Assembly (NCBI RefSeq): GCF_018977255.1
Contig: NW_024704743.1
Span: 8,434,001 to 8,498,000 of the forward strand
Origin: Callorhinchus milii
Lineage: Eukaryota
Length of the DNA stretch: 64,000 nucleotides
Direction: 5' to 3'
Within the stretch, counting starts at the first letter, position 1. The number at the start of each line of letters is the position of its first letter. The notes beneath the pieces are model-generated. The model ran no database searches, had not been told where the DNA came from, and worked only from the letters and a program-made list of their open reading frames with translations. Below, piece by piece: positions 25,544-48,092 of the stretch. The position numbers and the translations under genes are program-made.

Positions 25544-26519
25544 CTGGGGAGGAAAAGAAAGATAGGTTATTGACTGTGCCATACATTTTCAAATTTACTG
25601 ATAGTAAAATGTGAAACAAAAAATACATGAATTGAATTCTTCTTTGTAGTATCTCAAATTTAAATAGCTTTTATGAGAAATGTTAGTTTAAAAACTGGAG
25701 TATCATGCAGCCGCTCTCTTAAAGAGTTTACATCTTTGCAGCAGCCTTGCCAAGTCTCAGTGTCTCAATTTAAAATGCATACAAACATCTTTCAAGAACT
25801 GTACATGACTGAGAAGGTGGCATACAGATTGAATTAAGACATACACAACCACAAAATTATGATAAAACCTCTGATAAAAGAAAGGGGCAGCAAGTCAACT
25901 GCTCTGTATTTGGAGATGTGATCAATTCAAAGAGCAATTACACCAAAAGTCTTTCACATACAGATTTTGCCTTTGACGTATGAACAATGAAAGCGGGTAA
26001 CAGTTAATTTTGAGATCATTTTGAACACACGTGAAGTGTTGGGTATTATGAGCAGCAAAATCCAAACAATGACTTGTTGAAGTCATCCATCTACTGTTTG
26101 TAAGTGCCCGCCAGAAAGCCACTAAAGAACAAATGCATATGGTCTATGCAAATACCATTCACACAATAACATGACCATTGCGTGTGGACATTGCCCTCAC
26201 AAGCTAAAAACAAAACAGTTCTGCTGCTCAATTATCCATAAACGCTTGGTAAATAAATAAGAAATAAGAGCTCAGAATGAGCTTCAAATTGTTTGAGTTA
26301 ATGAAAGTGTAGATGCTGAAAATTTAAAAAAGCAAATACAAACATCACAGCAGGCTAAATCAATTTCTGAAAGAGAAATATAGGTTAGCATTCCTTTATC
26401 TGAACTAATGGACTGTAAAACCCCTGTATAAGAGTAATCTATTTTGGTTCCATCTATATAAGACAACAAAGCTCTACAAATACTTAATGCCATAGAAGAA
26501 GCATGAAACTGTGGTAAAA

Positions 26520-27080
26520 TTAAAGCAAGGAAGTGGTGTAAATGTATACAAGACATTGGTTAGGCAGTAAATGGAGTACTGTATGCAGTCTGTCCACCTC
26601 ATTAGAGAGGAAATCAGAGTTATGGAAAGGGTGTTCGTTTGATGATAGGATATAGATTATGAATATAGGTTGAAAAAATTGGAACAGAGAAAGTTAAGAG
26701 GGGGAATGTGATAAAATTCTAAAGGTTTTGTGAGGTTAGATAGTGAGATTATTCCTTCAGTTTGGTAAAAAGGTAACAAGAAGGCACAAACTCGGAGCAG
26801 TCATTGAGAAGGAGAGCTTAGAAAGGTTTTCATACAGGTATTAGAATAATGTTTGCAATTTTTATAGTGCCTTTCACATCAGGATCTACTTTAAGTGTAG
26901 GGAATGTAATTTGAAGGCAAATGCATCAACCAATTGGAATTGGATAAACAATTGAAAAAGAATATAACATGGAATGGGGAAAGAGCAGGGATTTAGAATT
27001 GGAAAAATTAATGCTGTTGGATAACAGCATTAGTTTCATTTTAGGCTCAATGGGACAAATGGCTTTCTCTTATCGTATGA
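26520..27080 (+). mobile_element. Highly decayed CR1 3' region in the last EPC1 intron
   Basis: tatacaagacattggttagg...ggagtactgtatgcagt (LY..LVRP.LEYC.Q-like), aaagttaagaggg, gggacaaatggc tail. Confidence 0.6.
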
Positions 27081-30000
27081 CTGGTGTTGAATTAGATGTG
27101 TGTGGTTCCTGATTTGTATAAATGGCTCTTATATTAAGAAATAACGTTACTAGGTGAAACGAATGCTACAGTTTGCATTTGTAATGTCAATATACAACAT
27201 TAACTTGAATTTATATAGCACCCTTCAAGCGGGGCAGTGTCTCGGAGAGCTAAGTGGCAGAGCCTGACGCCAAGCAAGGGGGAGGTGACCTTAAGCACGG
27301 TCGAAGAGGAAGGTCTTTAGGCTTGATTTGAAAATGGGGAAGGAGGCGGCAAGCCAGAGGGATTGAGCGAAAGAGTTTCAAAGTTTTGGGACATACACAG
27401 AAGATGCTTCATGGATACAGTCAATATCTTCTTTCAAGGTGGTGCTAAAAACATTTAAATGCCTTAATGGATATGAGTTAGAACTGGAAGGATCTGTGTG
27501 AGCCACAATGGACTTTCTTCCAGAGTTTATGTAGATACAATATTGGGCGGGTGATTTATGGGCTATTGTGGTCCAAAGACAATGAACAATCATATTCATT
27601 TGTTCTATGCATTCTGAAACCAAACAAGTCTAAGAGGTCTTACTGGTTAAAAATCCAGCAAAGCCATCCATTTTTCCAGGATTATAGTTTAGGATTTTGA
27701 AGGTTGATGTTGAGAAATCAAAGTTCAGAGCAGATACGACATTTTGAAGACTTATGCAATGTGTAGACAATTTTGACAACCATTACTGAAGGGTATAGGT
27801 TGAGGTCGCAGGAAGTGCATCAAATGATCAAAATTGTTGGATTGGGGCTTTATTAAATTAGAATAATTAGGGTTATATGATGTTAATCACAACCAAAGGA
27901 GAACATTAAAAAATGTAAATAAATAAATCTAAGTAACTTATAAAATACAAATTACTGGGGTAAAATTGCAAATTGACCAATAAACATCATTTTTAATATA
28001 AAAAATTACCAAAGGAGCAAAATAAAATGGTGTAATTCTCGAACAAGACTTAACGTACAAGGCTTGCTGGATTCTGTTATTTGTAAATAATCTGTTCATT
28101 TGGTTCCACAGTTTTGTCATCGTTTTTACCTACAAAAATGTGTCTTTGGGAGGTAAGGTCACCACAGACACCACTTTCTGCATGGGCACATATTTGCAGA
28201 TAGAACCTACAATATCACTGGAAGTTGGCTAGTGGTCAAAAAATTGCTGAAAATTAAAACAAATGCCAATGTTATTTGTCGAAAACTAAAATCTAAAAAT
28301 TGAAAACCAGGAACCCTACATGTAAAGGCTGAGTGAAGTTCACTGGGTTTGCTTAGATAATGTAAGGATTGATGTATTCTATGCCTATTCTATGCCGATC
28401 AATGGCCTATTCACTTGTAAGACATTCTGGGCTGCAGCCAGCAAACCTAACATCTGAAACCAAGTATCAGTACTAAGCTTGTAAGTTGACTTGCCAGGAT
28501 TCAAAATTCCTGAATTTATGCCTAATTCAGTGCGTATATTTTTGCATAAGCTGAACTATTATTGCAAACACCACAAATGTTTTCTGTTCATTGTTAAAAT
28601 CAGCTATGGTTGTCAGCAAAAAATACCCCCATGGTAGGCTTGGGTCACCCTAGGGAAATCGCTAATGTTTGTGTTCCATCAATGCGCAGGGACAGTTGCT
28701 TCCTTCAAAAAAATGATTTGCTAATAGAATAATGTACATAATGACTTGCTTTTTTTAAAAAATTACATTGTCAAAGACTTCTTCTCTAATTGTAGTTGTA
28801 TAACCCTCCACCAAGAGTCAAGTAATACTGCATGTTTAAATCTATGTAAATTAAAAGCAGAAAAGGGTATTTTCCCCATACAGTAAGACATTTCCTTCAT
28901 TGTCCAATACATAGTGTTGTTTTAAAACTATCAAGGAAAATTTGCAACATACATTGAAGCCCTTGCTCTATGAAATGGATGCTTGTTGTAACCTGCACAT
29001 AAATAATCTAGCTTTGATATAAAATATATCCCTAAACAGGAAGCTGTGTTAACCACCAAGAAATTGTTAATAAAAAAAGTTTTTGTTTTTAAAAAAGGGC
29101 AACTGTCCACTACTTGCTGGTTTATATATTAAAAAAGAAACAAAGAGCATTTACTTGCCTCCCAACCTCCTGCTCCTACCCTTAAAGCTTCCCGAAGTTC
29201 TGTAGCAAAGTCTCCTTTTATGATTCCTATTTCACCATCTGGGCAGCAACATCACACCACACCTCTATGGCGCTATGAATTGCAGGGCCAGTGTCGTGTA
29301 TGTGGAGAAACACTTCCTGCAGGTGTGATGTTTAAAGAGTGAGCATCACCATCAGTACCCCTTTATGAAATAATTCAAACCATTAAAAAGAATTGACAAA
29401 CTTTTGATATTTTTGTCCGATTTTGTTAAAAAAAGTAATTTTGTTTAAACAGTAGCTGCCGATGACACATCATTGGGCTCAAAATCTCCTTCAAGACAGA
29501 CGCCCTAATAGTCACCAACACTTACTGCTGCAAAAAAGGGTACTGATTGAGAGAAATGCTAGGTTACCTACCTTCTGAGATGTTCCTTGTTCTCTGAATA
29601 ATCAACTACCACACAAAAGATACAGGCTACGTGGGAAAGGGTGGGGGGGGGGGGGGTGGAAAGAAGGATGGCAAGGGAAGGGGGGGGGGGAGGATTGAAA
29701 ACGGCAAAAAGGAAACAAATGTGACTGTCCCATCAGCATCATTTAAGAGCCCTTACGCGTATAGACTTTCTTAAGTGTCTGCTGTGCAAAAAACCCTTTG
29801 ACTGGTATCAGATCAGTTCTTTTGAGGCAAGCAGCAGCAAAGACACAGTAATGTTATAACAAGGCAAGAAACCTAGAAATATCAGAAAGCTGAGGTAGCT
29901 TTTAAAGGTTAAATTAAGAATGATGAAGACCTTGGCAAAACTAATTGGATATTCTTCCTCATTTTTCAACTTGTACACAAATATCAAACAGTACAAAGAA

Positions 30001-30864
30001 AAAGTGAAAAACTCCATCATCTCATTTTAAAGCCCAGTATGGAGCACATACCAAACTACCACCTAGCTATACCAATGTTCATTATAAAGTGGTTAGCCTA
30101 ATGTTGTTAAACAAAATAGTTTATCTATTTATCTATAGAGAACACCAAGCCTCTATAACTTCAACAGGTAAAACAGTCTCCAGAAAGATGACATTTCAAA
30201 TTTTGTTACCTGTACTTCCTGAAACAAAATTCTGATGAAATTTTAATCGTCAACCAGACTATGCTCCCTACCAAAAGCCAAATATCCTCTCAGTACGCAA
30301 AGCTCACTGACAGCAGAAATTTGAAACTGATGATCACACAAAAAAGGATTAAAACCGTAAATGCCCATTGAAGACCAGCTATTTCCCAGATATCTCAAAA
30401 ATGTGACAACACTGGATGTTTTGAAAATTTACTGCCAGAGGTGGGCAATAGGCTGAAATTACTGCAAATTTAACCATCAGTTGGGGACAGATCACAAGAG
30501 TAGAAAGATTGTATTAAAGTGAGGACTGCTGGCATTTTACACCCTCCACAGACCTACTTGTCTAACAGTTTACTCAGTTACACTAAGAAACTGAATGAAT
30601 TTTAAAATGGTGTGCAATAAACTACAACTTTAATACAATTTGGAAGGGAGTACAAGCAGCCAAAAGTCACCCATCCTGAATGGATAAATAGCAGCATTCC
30701 CTATGAAAGCAGGCAGATTATGTAAATGTAATATGAACCCTGTAATCAACTCGATTGTCAAATTTCTCAAGGTCAAGTAAATACGGTGACCTGATCAGGG
30801 TACCACCGTAGTAACCCAGCTGAAATACAGTCTGTACAAAAAGGAATTTAGAAAAGAGTCTTAC

Positions 30865-31240
30865 CGTGGTACTCCATCCATGGAGGAGGACCCTGGGACC
30901 TTGGGCACCTGACAATTTGCTGCTGTAGCCAGCTTTAAGGCGGATTGCGGAACTGTGTTTAAAGTCCTAGGTATATGACGTGCATTCAGACTGGTGACAG
31001 AATTAACAGTAGCTACTGAGCCAGGTACACCTAGACGAAGGTTATTCCCAAGCAAGAGCTGAGGAGTGGAGGAGTTTGTAGCACTTCCGTGGTGACTCAG
31101 AGCACCGTGTGAACTTGCTGTCAGTATGTTGCTGCAGGGTGACAGCAAGGCTGAACCCACTGATGATGATGAACATGATTGACTGGTTTGTACAAGTGCA
31201 GTAGTCGTGGTACTAGTGAGGTGTAAGCCCTTGTATGATC
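30865..31240 (-). CDS. EPC1: EPC1 penultimate coding exon (376 nt)
   Basis: ttttag|GA TCA TAC...CCA CG|gtaaga; GSYKGLHLTSTT...NARHIPRTLNTVPQSALKLATAANCQVPKVPGSSSMDGVPR. This low-complexity region matches recalled EPC1 rather than EPC2. Confidence 0.95.
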
Positions 31241-32137
31241 CTAAAAGAAAGCAAACAGAATTAAGGAACAATAATCAAATACATTTTGGGGGGAGGGGGG
31301 AAAGAAGAGGGCTGGGGAGGAAGATGCAGAAAAATAAAATAGCTTTCACTGGATACATTTATATTTAAGAAAATAATCCTGAATCTTAATTCTGATTATT
31401 TTGACTCAAGCATTATGCAGTACTGCACATGTCAGATGAATGATATTACCAATTCCCAGTCTCCCCCACCCCCAAAGCTAAATTTATTAATGTAATTTTA
31501 GTTTCTGGTCGTGTAAGAATTACTTTACATTATTCATACTATCTTTAATGAAAGAATGTTCACTTCTGAAGGCCAGTTTGCCTTGTAAATAATGGTAATT
31601 ACAGAGTGAGGTACTTTGTACCAAATAGGACCACTATCAGTAAGGACTTTGGTTTCCTGTAGCCAGCTAGAGATAAAAGGGTTTAGACATGGCATTTCCT
31701 TTAGTTGATCTCAAAAGGACGAGGAGCTGAGTATAGCAACCAGGATCAACCACAGAACCTTCTGGTCCCAAATTTAATGCCACTAGTATTCTTGCCTACT
31801 TTGCATTACAACGAGAGAGCTCGTTTAAAAAGACATTGAAAACATGGGCAAGCAGAGCAGGATTCATTCAATTTCATCGTCAATACTTCTACCCAATTCT
31901 AAAAAAAGTGAAGTTTAAATTATTGTTTTCAAAACTGCAACACAAGCACTACCACCCTATATTTATGCTGTACTGATACAAAATGCATATGACAGCAAAT
32001 TCTTCGCAATATTAATTGCCCTGATTCTCATTTCAGTTATTAATTCTTCCAATCTACTCAAAAGTTCTTGTTTTTTTAAAAATTCTAAAATTATGTTCAA
32101 CTTGAATGTCAGCACAACAGTAAAAAGCTGGACTCAC

Positions 32138-34598: not shown

Positions 34599-36594
34599 CT
34601 GAACACAAATTAATTTAAGTTAAATATGATTCCAACTCACGAGCATTGAACACAAGAGCCACTTTTCTAGTCTTACACAAAAATTTGCAGACTTGTCTAT
34701 AAAATAGCTATAATATTGTAACAGCACTAAATTAATCCTGCCCTCACCTAATGTTTGCTAGGAAAATGACAATTACTGAAGTACCACACACTGACACAAA
34801 ATTGCAATTTAACTGACAGGTATTGGCAAAAAAAATTTGAATAAGGGAACAAATGAGTTACCAAGTCACCCATTCACACAAATTGAACAAACTCAAGGTA
34901 CCTATCAAGGGGGAGAGGCATTTTGTTTCACATTAACAAGACAAGCCTGGGCACCGAAGATGATAACAGTGAGTGATTGGGAAGAGAAGGGGGATATTGA
35001 TTTGACAATGTTCTAACAAAAAGATGCTTGAACTACCAAAAAACATTTACACAAGTCTTGATAACACATTATACAATGTCCTGACAACAGATTTTATATA
35101 ATCTGTAGAACAAGCAAACAAATGCTAAAATAATCTCCAACAAAGTTTCTTTTAGCAGTAGCGCAATTGTGACTAGAAACATACTTGGGACTTCAAAAAT
35201 GCAACTAAACTTAAGTCTAGCAGCACAAAGTTTTCGCCGCAAGCTAGCAAGCAAGCCTTTGCTCTTTTGGAAAGCTTCGTCTCAGCTGGGAACCTCAATG
35301 TGGCCTCTAAACCGATATTGGGATGACAAGAGCTTTCCTTTGTGACTAAATCATCTAAATCATCTACCTGTATAATCCAAAAACATCTTCAAATTTTAAT
35401 CATGTCAGAATATTATTTTCCACTATAATGTAAGGGAAAGTAAATGCAAGTCAAGTCTCTTTGACAGCTGCTTGAGCTTCCTTCTGGAAACTGCGGGGAA
35501 GCTCCTCGTAACGACACAGAAGTCTGTGTCCAGAAAAAACACATCCTGGTGAGGATTTATGAACTGGAAAATAGATTTCAAATAAAAGACAAGTGGGGGA
35601 CTAGGCACAATTTCTTGTAGAATACCATCAAACAAACATTCAGGAACTAAAAGAAAAAGTACACATATATTGCTCATTAGCTGTAATGCACTTTTTAAAC
35701 AAAGCACATAAATGTAATCAAGTTCAACTACTAACAGATCAATAAATCCATATTATGAAAATATTGTAGCTAATAAATTAGACCACAAAAATCAGGGATA
35801 CAAGTCTCATGATCAAATAGCCCATTTTAAGGAAGATAATACAATGAGCTGAAACTGGATTGTCTTAATAAAGTATTCTGAATTTTACTATAGCTTCAGA
35901 AGAAAACTTGAAAGACACGCAGGAGTTCAAGTTTTTTATTGTACTCCCCTTGTTACAGTAGCATGACCAAAATCCAACCCTGAAGTGATGACTAATTGTG
36001 ATTTTTTTTAAACTCCCAGTGCGTACCTGATTGAGAATTTTTGAAATAAAATTGAAAACCCATGTTGTTTGTATGTAGACATGTAACCAAAACAACAATT
36101 TAACTTCAGTTGTCACACGACTTGTGTAAGCTGGTTTTGGCAGCTAAATAAAAAAATACAGAAAATTGTATTAAGCAATATTCTGAACACAAAAAAAATC
36201 CCAATTTCCTACCAGAACCCAAAAACATCTAGCAAAAGAACCCCGAAACGAGAACTCAGAAAATGAGTGAGTTTGCTTTCGTTTTCCTCTTAATCACACT
36301 AAGTTTGGTAAAAGTATGAGATGATATTTGCTGAAATGGCACAACAGTTGAGGTTTGGGTAATTTTTCCAGTTTAGATTGTTTTTCACATATTAATTGGT
36401 AAGAATGGCAACTGAGCAAGTTATCGTAATGAATTGAATGCATTTGAGATACCTGGATACCAAGACGTTTCAATATGTAAGTAGGAATTCTGCTGACACA
36501 GTGACCTAACCACCAACTTAATTCCCAGTGGATACAAGCATAATAAAATCATGCCAATATGGATTCAGATATATTGCTTAAAATCTACATCTCA

Positions 36595-37360
36595 GCTGTC
36601 CAAAGGCACTAAACAGTCAGGGATTTGGACCTGAGCTGGGGGTTGGGAACAGGAGGAGTGGAGGGCAGGTGTAGGAAGGCGGTCAAAGGGGAAGAGTCTT
36701 GAGATATGCCTTGAAGGAGGCAAAGGAGGGAGCAATGCAAAGAGATTGTGGGATGGAGTTCCAAAGGGTGGGGCAGAGCGGCTGAAGGTCCGACCACCGA
36801 TGGTGAGGCAGGCCGAGTGGGGACGAGGAGCAGGCCAGGGCCCGCTGAGCGGGGGGAGCAGACAGGTTGATATGCGGTTAGGAAGGAGCAAGGCTGTGGA
36901 GGGCTTTGAAGGCGACGATGAGGATTTTGAACACTTTCCTCTGGGGGGATGGCGGACCAGTGAAGCCAGGCAAGGGTGGGCGTGATAGGGTCACGGAGCC
37001 TGGTGCGGGAGAGGACACGAGCTGTAGAGTCCTGAATGATCTGCAGCGTGTGGAGGGAAGTGTCGGGGAGGCAGACAGGGAGTTGGTGTAGTCAAGCCTA
37101 GATATAATAAATGCATGGACGAGGATCTCAGCGACCTGAGGGGAGAGGCAATAGGGGGAGCTGGGCGATGTTGCGGAGGTGGGAGAAGGCAGAGCGGGAC
37201 ATGACACAGATTTGGAGTAGAAAGGACAGTTGAGGGTCAAACAAGATGCGAAGGTTCCGGACCTTTTCAGTGAGGTATAGAGTGCATCCATGGGTGGTGA
37301 TGCTGCCAACGCCTGAGGTGTGGAGGCGCTGACAGGAGCCAATCAGGAGGACCTTGTTCT
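36595..37360 (-). mobile_element. L2 3' fragment in EPC1 intron 10
   Basis: AEILVHAFIISRLDYTNSL and FKILIVAFKALHSLAPS motifs. Confidence 0.88.
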
Positions 37361-43504: not shown

Positions 43505-44362
43505 GCATCTCTGCAAGAGAGCTAACTTTCTTCAGTTGAACGTCAACGAGACCGAGGCCCTCCTGATTGGCTCCCGTCAGCGCCCTCACACCTCAGGCGT
43601 TAACAGCATCACCATCCACGGATTCACACTCCACCTTACTAAGCCAGTCCAGAACCTTGAGGTCTTGTTTGCCCCTTAACTGTTCTTTCTATCCCACATC
43701 CGTGCCATGACCCGCTCTGCCTTCCCCCACCTCTGCAATATCCCCTGGCTCAGCCACTGTCTCACAGCACAGGCCGCGAAACCCTCATACATGCATTCAT
43801 AACTTTCAGGCTTGACAATGCAAACTTCTTGCTTATCGGCCTCCCCAACTCCTCCCTCCATAGGCTGCAGATCATCCAGAACTCTGCAACCTATGTCCTC
43901 TCCCGCACCAGGCTCCGTGACCCTATCACCCCCATCCTCTGCCAACTCCACTGGTTTCCCATCACACAGAGGATACAGTTCAAGATCCTGGTCCTCACCT
44001 TCAAAGCCCTCCATGACCTTGCTCTCCCCAACCTCTGCAATCTCCTAACCCTCTATGATCTTGCCTGCTCCCTCCCTGCTTCACATCCCTCACCTCCCTC
44101 ACCATTGGCAGGCGAGCCTTCTGCCACTCTGCACCCACCCTCAGGAATTCCACCCCGCAGTCCCTCCGTCTCACCCCCTCCCTTGCCTCCTCCAAGACCC
44201 ATCTCAAGATCCTCCTTTTTGACTGTGGTTTTGATCACCCTCTTCTCCACCCTCCACCCTCACAATCCCGACCCCCAGCTCAAGTCCAAAACACTGTCCA
44301 GCTCATTGGAACGTCCTTCCGACATGAAAGGCGCTATACAAACGTAATTTTGTTGCTGTTGC
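43505..44362 (+). mobile_element. L2 3' fragment in EPC1 intron 10
   Basis: ANFLQLNVNETEALLIGSRQR; LQIIQNSATYVLSRTRLRDPITPILCQLHWFPI; L2 tail. Confidence 0.9.
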
Positions 44363-45914: not shown

Positions 45915-46350
45915 AACAATAACATTTACATAGCTCCTTTCACATTGGGAGGACGGTCCAGGGTTCTTAAAAATATTGACTTGGCACCTGAATTGGGAGT
46001 GGGACTGAAAGTATGGTTAAAAGAGGACCTTGAACGAAGTTGGGGAGGGAGTGAGTCAGAGGGAATCCCAGTTTGAGTTTGAGAGTGGGGCCAGAATGGC
46101 TGATGGTGGGGAGGAGGCAGGGACATGAAGCAGGATAGTGCCAGTTGAGCAAAAAAAGTGGCGAGGTTGGTAGGGGTTGAGGCGCAGAGGTAGGGTGAGG
46201 TGTGACTGTGGAGTGATTTAAAAGGCGAGAACAAGAATCTTGAACTCTTATCCACGGAGATTTGGGAAGCCAATGAAGCCAGGCAAGGATAGGGGTGATA
46301 AGACTCACAGAGCCTATTGTGGGAAAGGACACAGGCTGCAGAGTTCTGGC
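45915..46350 (-). mobile_element. L2 3' fragment
   Basis: ITPILAWLHWLP motif and reverse-complement L2 tail. Confidence 0.8.
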
Positions 46351-48092
46351 CCTGAACATCCCCATGTTCGAATCAATTAGAATGAAGTTGTATGCTTTGA
46401 GTGTATTATTAATGTCAGTCGTGCCATTTGAAGAAAACAACTAGAAGATAAGTACCAGGGCAGTACAACGGCAATCAGTAGTACAAAGGCAATCAGTCAA
46501 ATCACTTGGATACTCCAGAAAACACAAATTTCCTTTTTGTGGAACATCACAATGCTTTGGCCAAGAATCCTTTAGACAAAATTTGTCACTCACATCATGG
46601 CTGTTTGTGGGACATTGATCTGCATAAATTGGCTGCACCAGCATTCACCCAAAAATATATACATTCACTGCATTTTACAATAAATGCTTTAAAGCGCTTT
46701 GAGATGTCAACTTAACATAAGGCAAATCCAAGGAATATTATTTTGATAGCTACACATTCAAGCCTTTATTAATTAACACTTCCACTGCACTAAATATTAT
46801 AAATCATATAAAGTTTATAGGAGGCCATTTGGGCCATCAAGTCTGTGCTAGCACTAGCACGCCCATTCTCATTCATTTCCCATATCCTCAAGTATTTCAA
46901 TGCTGTATAGACTCAGCTTCAACTACTATGTGTGCCAAAGCATTCTACATTCCAACAACGAACATAATCATGCAGGTGCCAAGATTCCCCCTTCCGTCAG
47001 CAGTGAACAAATTTATGTCACGCCCATTCTATCACCACTAGAGGTCACTTGTCTACTTTATAATCCAGTGCATCAAAATGCAGTAGTGAGAACCACACAG
47101 TGCAATCCTGTTATAAGCTTAACTAACATCATTTCCTGTTTGCTGCACATGTGCAAAGTACTAAGTGACATCAGCAATGACTGAATGACCTGGAGGTTGG
47201 CTGGCTTTAACGCTAAAATAGCTGGTGCGTGGGTAAATAAATCACCACTGTGCTATGCCAATTTGCATAGTAAAGCAGCAATGTTGATGTAATGACCTAG
47301 TCTAACACTTTAGTGCATATGCACAGTCTGCAGTGAATGGTGTCCACAGTGCAACTGTGTTGTAAGTTAATTTCCTGAAGCATATTATAAAGGGCTACAA
47401 TTTGAGGAATCTCTTTGCTCGTACAAAACTACCGTTTCTTTATTAGAATTGAAAATTCTAGTCAGAAATGCGAGCATGTAGATGAGGAAAACAAGAGCAC
47501 TGAGCCCTAGCTGTACTCACTGTGCAGGTGTGAGAGGGGCAATACAGTTCCAATATACAGCCCAGCCCTGCTATAACGATCTTAACTATAACATGAATTT
47601 GCTTATAGTGCAGTTGCACCATTCACTGCTCATGTGTACAACTGACTCCCTCCGTTGCTGTGCAGGCTGGTGTTTCACCCTAAAATGGCCAACTGCCTTG
47701 CCTGGTCATTAAATCAATTCCAACAGCATTTCCTGCTTTGCACATCCACAACAAAGAAGCTGGTAGTGACATAAACATTGGACATTTTTTTTCCTTTTGT
47801 GCAGAATTGGACAGATCACAGCTTTCTGGGGATATATGCAGTCAAACCAGTCAACTGCTCCTGGCTGGAAGGCTGGTTGTGATTTTTTGGATCCCAAACA
47901 ATGCAATACAATGTGAATCCACTGTATAGGTATAAATATATATATTTTACCTATCCTGGATTTAGGATTTCAATGAGCAAATGCGCTATAAAATCTTTAG
48001 ATAGATTAGCTTAAAAAAAGTGATTAAGTTTGTAAACTAAACTTTTTAATTCTTTTTCCTATAAGTGGTTTAAAAACCCATTCATTACCCAC

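Follow-up and report, generated by a model that had tools for sequence, protein, structure and literature searches.

A conserved block in the last EPC1 intron of the elephant shark, a candidate structure-controlled poison exon

The EPC1 locus and the RNA data

The DNA analysed was a window of 64,000 nucleotides (nt) from Callorhinchus milii, the elephant shark (contig NW_024704743.1, positions 8,434,001 to 8,498,000), and all positions given here are those of the window. It carries EPC1 on the minus strand. The EPC1 protein is one of the subunits that make up the NuA4/TIP60 acetyltransferase. The subject of this report is a block at 29360-29265 in the last intron of the gene, which matches alternative C-terminal tails of EPC1 in sharks and rays. 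This conserved element probably turns down EPC1, a chromatin gene. Alignment of EPC1 proteins gave 13 minus-strand exon blocks, running from 62950 to 25474, and the peptide encoded by the minus-strand exon 31240-30865 was 100% identical to Callorhinchus milii EPC1. The last intron spans 30864-25544 (5.3 kb) and holds both elements studied, the conserved block and a stop exon at 29626 put forward in an earlier reading of the sequence (the original prediction). That reading had named the gene, the intron and the reading frame correctly. The two coding exons that flank the intron are as follows.

30865..31240, minus strand, penultimate EPC1 coding exon, ending in phase 2 with CG carried over (exon contigs of RNA runs X1 and X3)
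25471..25543, minus strand, coding part of the last exon, encoding ENH...VAMEVT and the stop (EPC1 proteins and the canonical joint)

The final 22-23 positions of the canonical tail close the Pfam domain E_Pc_C. No tested function of the final 23 residues was found in the literature looked at.

RNA data were contigs from four of the 14 listed runs (X1, X3, X5 and X6), all from a single organism. They inform on presence, never on absence, and contig sets lose rare forms and forms that nonsense-mediated decay (NMD) degrades. The canonical joint 25542/30864 (junction 30865>25543) was found at a depth of 72.2 in X1 and 11.7 in X6, so both runs include spliced RNA. Coverage was zero in X1 from 29626 to about 29870, in X3, X5 and X6 at 29488-29685, and at every exon in X5. 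These uncovered parts carry no weight because a filter strips records from contig runs. Contigs of the last exon were mostly absent from the four runs, which is consistent with filtering for human likeness. Single bases or insertions differed between the window and X1 contigs at 26325, 26497, 27081, 28521 and 30444; one of the differences was common to X3, and they are likely alleles. Chance backgrounds were computed within the 64-kb window, its introns or the 37.4-kb EPC1 pre-mRNA.

A conserved block with two acceptors

29265..29360, minus strand, conserved block matching alternative C-terminal tails of four elasmobranch RefSeq X2 models

Two in-phase acceptors open the block. Behind acceptor A (exon start 29360) the frame left by the penultimate exon reads GTDGDAHSLNITPAGSVSPHTRHWPCNS, with the stop ending at 29273. 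Behind acceptor B (exon start 29316) it reads KCFSTYTTLALQFIAP, with the stop ending at 29265. Among the 45 chondrichthyan-named EPC1 proteins listed, 39 have canonical ends, two are other elephant-shark models and four have alternative tails. The alternative tails follow the penultimate exon directly in Hypanus sabinus (XP_059827938.1), Amblyraja radiata (XP_032901306.1), Rhinoraja longicauda (XP_078281650.1) and Chiloscyllium plagiosum (XP_043546541.1). RefSeq gene models such as these four X2 models are generally built on RNA-seq junctions.

The tail of the three batoids (Hypanus, Amblyraja and Rhinoraja) is VLMMT(H/R)(A/S)LNITPAGSVSP and matches 29341-29303 at 12 of 13 residues, behind acceptor A. 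The Chiloscyllium plagiosum tail, KCLSINTSLALQFIAP, matches 29315-29268 at 12 of 16 residues, behind acceptor B, and ends at the same stop. Tail scores were 59-64 compared to maxima of 34-39 in 300 shuffles each, taken over three frames of the 5.3-kb intron. At least one change in 39 nt reconciles the batoid peptide with the window, and at least four in 48 nt the Chiloscyllium peptide. The penultimate coding exon of the four species is 80-85% identical to that of the elephant shark. By these comparisons the block appears to be about as conserved as coding sequence, and in two overlapping frames. Conservation was seen through peptides, which cover 29358-29265. Judged in this way, the block of about 95 nt is homologous to exons spliced onto the penultimate exon in four elasmobranch gene models. 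Read-through of the GT donor does not account for the tails, because the next codon would then start with T and the codons for V and K do not. Tails of bird, turtle and mammal-like entries that begin WVF... or SVV..., or that consist of a bare terminal R, look most like run-on past the GT donor and were not taken as exons.

Behind acceptor A the reading H-[SA]-LNITPAGSVSP stays in frame in both lineages, although two indels lie upstream. The elephant-shark frame A starts differently and is nine residues longer than the batoid tail. The two frames, the shifted stops and the different first residues suggest constraint at the RNA or nucleotide level and not on the protein.

Searches for further copies were negative. 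None of the five elephant-shark proteins compared (P0002, P0003, P0122, P0123 and P0137) carries one of these tails, and no related tail was found among the bony-vertebrate proteins compared. This absence is weak evidence because an NMD form is rarely annotated. None of the three tails searched for occurred in the best 150 of 2272 proteins (50% representatives, profile-free search). A protein search with the batoid C-terminus gave two matches among 18 candidates, both canonical. In-frame insertions known from upstream introns of bird and turtle had no match in the window. The main EPC1 protein cluster was covered to the extent of 15 of its 47 members, so the spread of the alternative tails is undercounted. 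A metagenome scan for orthologous introns returned one locus (L001), which is bird-like and holds about 915 nt of the last intron; its best local alignment scores against the introns of the window were at shuffle level. A pattern scan of viral contigs gave no matches. Rfam covariance models run on 25300-31300 gave six matches at E <= 5, all far under the gathering score and none in 28800-30300. A small nucleolar RNA or microRNA reading of the block was rejected, given no Rfam match and a fold of 29380-29130 at z = -1.0.

RNA signal at the block and the putative exon end

29155..29264, minus strand, inferred rest of the exon, to the candidate donor CAA|gtaaat after 29155 (motif scan)

The candidate donor after 29155 lies 118 nt past the stop of frame A and 110 nt past that of frame B. 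Weak poly(A)-like hexamers occur at 29222, 29155 and 29130, with U-rich sequence nearby. Run X6 has one intronic contig outside the high-depth bins with loose ends, which are repeats. It covers 29169-29362 (194 nt) at a depth of 7.2. Its start is 2 nt before acceptor A, a site defined independently from the batoid proteins, and its end is 14 nt short of the first donor-like site, CAA|gtaaat after 29155. A uniform model gives a probability of about 0.002 that a contig would begin no more than 2 nt from A or B. The contig is a hint of inclusion, not proof.

A predicted helix over both splice signals

29534..29547, minus strand, 5' arm of the helix, between the donors at 29572 and 29526 (inverted repeat I2 and folding)
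29351..29364, minus strand, 3' arm of the helix, holding acceptor A's AG (29362-29361) and the branch point TACTGAT
29448..29529, minus strand, inner hairpin in the helix loop, pairing the donor at 29526 (prediction)

The helix 29547-29534 : 29364-29351 was predicted in one species, with 14 bp, one G-U pair and -19.4 kcal/mol. The pair probabilities were 0.62-1.0 across three folding windows. The TACTGAT in its 3' arm places an A at 29352, 36 nt upstream of acceptor B, and has no mismatches to the branch-point consensus YNYURAY, as given in the available part of PMC1431707. The batoid residues V-L-M are compatible with the sequence of the 3' arm. Within the 37.4-kb EPC1 pre-mRNA the helix ranked sixth of 55 (at least 13 bp, arms within 400 nt), and one of 800 sampled AGs had an upstream partner as strong. 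The domain 29560-29340 folded at z = -4.9 (0 of 200 shuffles), and none of the 47 windows in the last intron scored lower.

Two other structures were recorded on the minus strand. The next-best folding window of the last intron is 26260-26041, with z = -3.0 (30 shuffles). The strongest helix of the EPC1 pre-mRNA lies at 41865-41786, with 22 bp, -39.8 kcal/mol and a short loop.

The stop exon proposed at 29626

29629..29724, minus strand, AG-free zone, with a U-rich tract at about 29719-29697 followed by C11 and C14 runs
29732..29738, minus strand, TGCTGAT, candidate distant branch point with its A at 29733, 107 nt upstream of the acceptor at 29626
29526..29626, minus strand, exon of the original prediction, with its stop ending at 29602 and two donors, one after 29572 and one after 29526 (sequence basis)

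Upstream of the conserved block lies the exon first proposed for this intron. Its sequence features were reproduced. No minus-strand AG occurs between those at 29726-29725 and 29628-29627, a zone of 96 nt. The phase-2 frame from 29626 reads LYLLCGS and then TGA, ending at 29602. The two donors are present, 30 nt (29572) and 76 nt (29526) past the stop. Compared to the donor consensus MAG|GTRAGT, AAG|gtaggt at 29572 scores 6/7 and GCA|gtaagt at 29526 scores 4/7.

The 96-nt AG gap by itself is unremarkable. It is the 23rd longest on the minus strand of the window, and five gaps of at least 96 nt occur in the last intron alone. Of the 4124 minus-strand AGs, 27 are preceded by a zone of at least 90 nt. 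At least one gap of 96 nt or more arose in 72% of 500 trials when the last intron was simulated with a first-order Markov model. When a zone of at least 90 nt was combined with YAG, at least 80% pyrimidine and a donor of at least 6/7 within 250 nt, one of the 4124 minus-strand AGs was retained, the acceptor at 29626, and none of 4072 on the plus strand; the thresholds of these four filters were chosen post hoc. The 22 nt upstream of this AG contain 14% T; at annotated-acceptor positions of EPC1, of which 13 were scored, T makes up 41-64%. TGCTGAT has no mismatches to YNYURAY and lies at the 5' end of the AG-free zone, next to the U-rich tract. The position of the branch point and the adjacent U-rich tract agree with the distant-branch-point class of exons; the 96-nt zone falls below its limit of at least 100 nt.

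The G-runs had also been suggested to form a quadruplex. Plus-strand G3+N1-7 patterns are indeed present at 29633-29656 and 29675-29690, two of the 11 in the window. The G-runs (29680-29690 and 29643-29656) are on the plus or template strand and are the complement of the C-runs of the AG-free zone. A quadruplex in EPC1 RNA is excluded there because the pre-mRNA has C-runs.

Use of this exon was not supported. No junctions at 29626, 29572 or 29526 were found in the four contig runs, where the canonical joint was the only joint seen, and none of the 367 EPC proteins compared has an LYLLCGS tail. The X1 contig 28745-29625 spans both donors uninterrupted, and the claim that these toggle NMD is not supported. 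Since contigs lose forms that are rare or degraded by NMD, this leaves the exon without support but does not refute it. The X3 exon contig (record 16) ends at 30865, one base before position 30864, where X1 and X6 break, and no successor contig was seen for it. This end implies a branch to a base other than G or an incoming branch.

Regular use of the 29626 exon is judged unlikely. On the mechanism proposed below it is most likely an unused or rarely used pseudo-exon made by C-run expansion beside the conserved element, and its interval most likely matters mainly as the putative carrier of the helix 5' arm. The observation on which the original prediction was built is confirmed and its interpretation is partly supported. 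The idea of a stop-bearing alternative exon in the last intron that would drop ENH...VAMEVT was right; the supported exon begins 166-210 nt past the second donor, and the real signal lies about 200 nt downstream.

Proposed mechanism and alternative explanations

An old alternative exon, common to chimaera, sharks and rays, would start at acceptor A (29360) or B (29316). The elephant-shark exon would be a cassette that extends to the donor after 29155. NMD is expected for a stop that precedes a later junction by more than 50-55 nt. Here the distance from the stop to the last junction would be 110-118 nt, so inclusion would send the mRNA to NMD and EPC1 would be lowered. Inclusion would normally be low, with the hairpin domain 29560-29340 hiding acceptor A's AG as well as acceptor B's branch point. 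Opening of the helix by slower or faster transcription, or by an RNA-binding protein, would permit inclusion. Alternative splicing coupled to NMD has support in this gene, since human and mouse EPC1 is such a target by way of an exon in another intron, according to the available parts of PMC13078869 and PMC11188260. We give an even chance to the last intron holding a conserved poison cassette, from 29360 or 29316 to 29155, that is mostly skipped through helix masking.

Several points weigh against this cassette. The tail is canonical in 39 of the 45 listed chondrichthyan proteins, and the tract of acceptor A is weak (55% pyrimidine, AAG). The four contig runs gave no joint that enters at 29360 or 29316 or leaves at 29155. 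The X6 contig follows the genome without a break, derives from a single run of a single study and could be one amplified pre-mRNA fragment. An X1 contig crosses the whole block unbroken at a depth of 6.96 (neighbouring intron contigs 12.9-24.2), and X3 and X5 are without contigs at the block. The 29155 donor was chosen from motifs and scores 5/7. The folding windows and the 14-mer were picked after the helix was seen.

A further objection is the listing of the four elasmobranch forms as proteins, an annotation that an alternative last exon explains no less well than an NMD cassette does. The block would then end at an intronic poly(A) site and yield a stable EPC1 with a new short tail, no long 3' untranslated region (UTR) and no NMD. 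The frame H-[SA]-LNITPAGSVSP, kept in both lineages from acceptor A despite two indels, favors such an exon. So do the poly(A)-like hexamers and U-rich sequence at 29222-29130, and the tail would substitute for the last 22-23 positions of E_Pc_C. Evidence to the contrary is that the frames differ between species with a shifted stop and different first residues, that 660 nt scanned contain no AATAAA or ATTAAA, and that the X6 contig ends 14 nt short of a plausible donor. We consider an alternative last exon, the main rival of the cassette, rather unlikely. A conserved DNA element (an enhancer, for instance) in genomes that evolve slowly, with the isoforms as splicing noise and the helix as chance or an old local inverted duplication, is a quite unlikely reading of the block. 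No elephant-shark junction was seen, five stronger helices of the pre-mRNA have no known role, acceptor choice varies among species and the sole RNA island comes from one run, all of which would fit a DNA element. That three batoids agree on one acceptor while the fourth species uses a second one 44 nt away does not, nor does the agreement of the RNA island boundary with acceptor A or the position of a helix arm exactly on both splice signals.

The 29626 exon could also be real, and this would be compatible with the conserved exon. The branch point at 29733 and the C-rich tract, possibly bound by PCBP/hnRNP E, would then define an exon whose two donors give an NMD-escaping and an NMD-sensitive form. 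Its layout fits the distant-branch-point recipe and was unique in the window under the post hoc thresholds, and C-rich tracts are able to drive cassette exons (PMC4797308, in the part available). Two contig ends are weak hints: the X3 break at 30865 is expected if the next base is not G (29626 is C), and the X1 intron contig ends at 29625, 2 nt from the expected junction break. The latter end is also explained by coverage lost or filtered over the G-runs. Against a real exon stand the lack of a joint in four runs (X3, X5 and X6 have a depth of 0 at 29488-29685), the unbroken passage of X1 through both donors and the absence of the tail from all 367 proteins. The second donor (29526) is base-paired in all predicted folds. 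The zone is also below 100 nt, and among real exons with zones above 100 nt a distant branch point explains one-fifth to one-half, as far as the accessible text of PMC1431707 goes. We hold a real 29626 exon to be improbable.

These alternatives and the poison cassette are partly compatible and not fully exclusive. On a wider model 29740-29155 would be one splicing switch dating to the shark-chimaera split, in which the choice of upstream exon and donor would set the exposure of the downstream poison exon. One helix would mask acceptor A's AG together with acceptor B's branch point, and its other arm would lie between the two donors of the upstream distant-branch-point exon. Control of EPC1 by NMD would then have arisen independently in cartilaginous fishes and mammals, in different introns. 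This model is very unlikely.

Other observations in the window

The stretch at about 25160-24950 on the minus strand is 3' UTR, which an alternative last exon would lose. We take this stretch to be strongly conserved among vertebrate EPC1 genes. UniRef model P0003 exits the penultimate exon early (30891) and ends in 16 residues encoded near the beginning of the last intron (30620-30573). No joint for this splice was found in the four contig runs, and it is probably a modelling artefact.

An alternative N-terminus ending ...LEHHLQ is common to sharks, rays and the elephant shark (P0005, P0007, P0009, P0011, P0014, P0016, P0019, P0021 and P0137). It points to a second conserved alternative first exon, which would fall past the upper end of the window. 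The minus strand at 33600-33520, in the intron between exons 34598-34480 and 32273-32138, has a 95%-pyrimidine tract, a CAG, an in-frame TAA and a second CAG, as well as two tandem donor-like sites (ag|gtgaga twice). The element resembles a micro-exon or a second stop exon. The in-frame cassette that human and turtle have in this intron gave no peptide match in the window. Broken frames of long interspersed nuclear element (LINE) type, for endonuclease and reverse transcriptase, were recognised by the appearance of their translations at 13379-15800 and 43661-44347 on the plus strand and at 36592-37342 and 45926-46440 on the minus strand. They are presumably L2/CR1-like.

Novelty and comparison with known systems

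As far as the searches reach, the conserved element is already visible as automatic isoforms in four species and has apparently not been described as a conserved element. A literature search, with most subscription papers out of reach, found no paper on a last-intron EPC1 exon, and the supplements of PMC11632617, PMC8091538 and PMC7347940 contain no EPC1 rows. If the poison cassette is true, EPC1 has a second stop exon in another intron, present in chimaera and elasmobranchs and in none of the bony-vertebrate proteins examined. This would suggest that dosage control was invented repeatedly on one gene. The predicted helix is a single 14-bp stem over the signals of two acceptors and is hence sharply testable. 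The striking AG-free tract may direct attention away from the exon that is backed by conservation. Chimaeras and elasmobranchs split about 400 million years ago. Holocephalans and elasmobranchs are the two chondrichthyan groups, according to the part of PMC3974841 available.

The closest relatives of the block are the elasmobranch X2 models, which have a homologous alternative tail after the penultimate exon. They differ in being automatic models, each in a single species. The comparisons that follow are based on the available portions of the cited papers. Distant-branch-point exons with long AG exclusion zones include PTB exon 11 and GABBR1 exon 23, and one-fifth to one-half of the zones of at least 100 nt are due to distant branch points (PMC1431707). 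The 29626 acceptor resembles this class in its branch point at the 5' end of the zone and the adjoining U-rich tract. The class was defined on real spliced exons; the 29626 exon is unobserved, and its 96 nt are under the cut-offs of 100 and 150 nt. In its C-runs nearer the AG the 29626 acceptor also resembles PCBP-enhanced exons with C-rich tracts; those exons are real and spliced (PMC4797308).

Human EPC1 has an NMD-inducing cassette at chr10:32273921-32274038 (NMD_in, cycloheximide-responsive) and mouse Epc1 one at chr18:6441802-6441912 (PMC13078869, PMC11188260). The gene is the same, and inclusion is likewise predicted to cause NMD. The mammalian cassette is upstream of a 120-nt exon which, by size and order, would correspond to 34598-34480 here, and the intron is therefore a different one. 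Neither of the two human EPC1 events in the accessible human table is a last-intron event.

BRD2 exon 3b and BRD3 exon 5b are poison exons governed by conserved pairs of complementary regions (PMC10789245). The EPC1 element shares with them a chromatin-regulator gene, a conserved intronic cryptic stop exon and a nearby complementary pair predicted to control inclusion. The BRD2 and BRD3 pairs were shown to be conserved and were tested by mutagenesis and antisense oligonucleotides, whereas the EPC1 helix is a prediction in one species. EPC1 also differs in that one arm directly overlaps an acceptor AG as well as the branch point of a second acceptor, in the last intron. A stable complementary pair at the exon, as in BRD2 and BRD3, is predicted for EPC1. 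The EPC1 element is a candidate member of the class of structure-controlled poison exons and would work most like those of BRD2 and BRD3.

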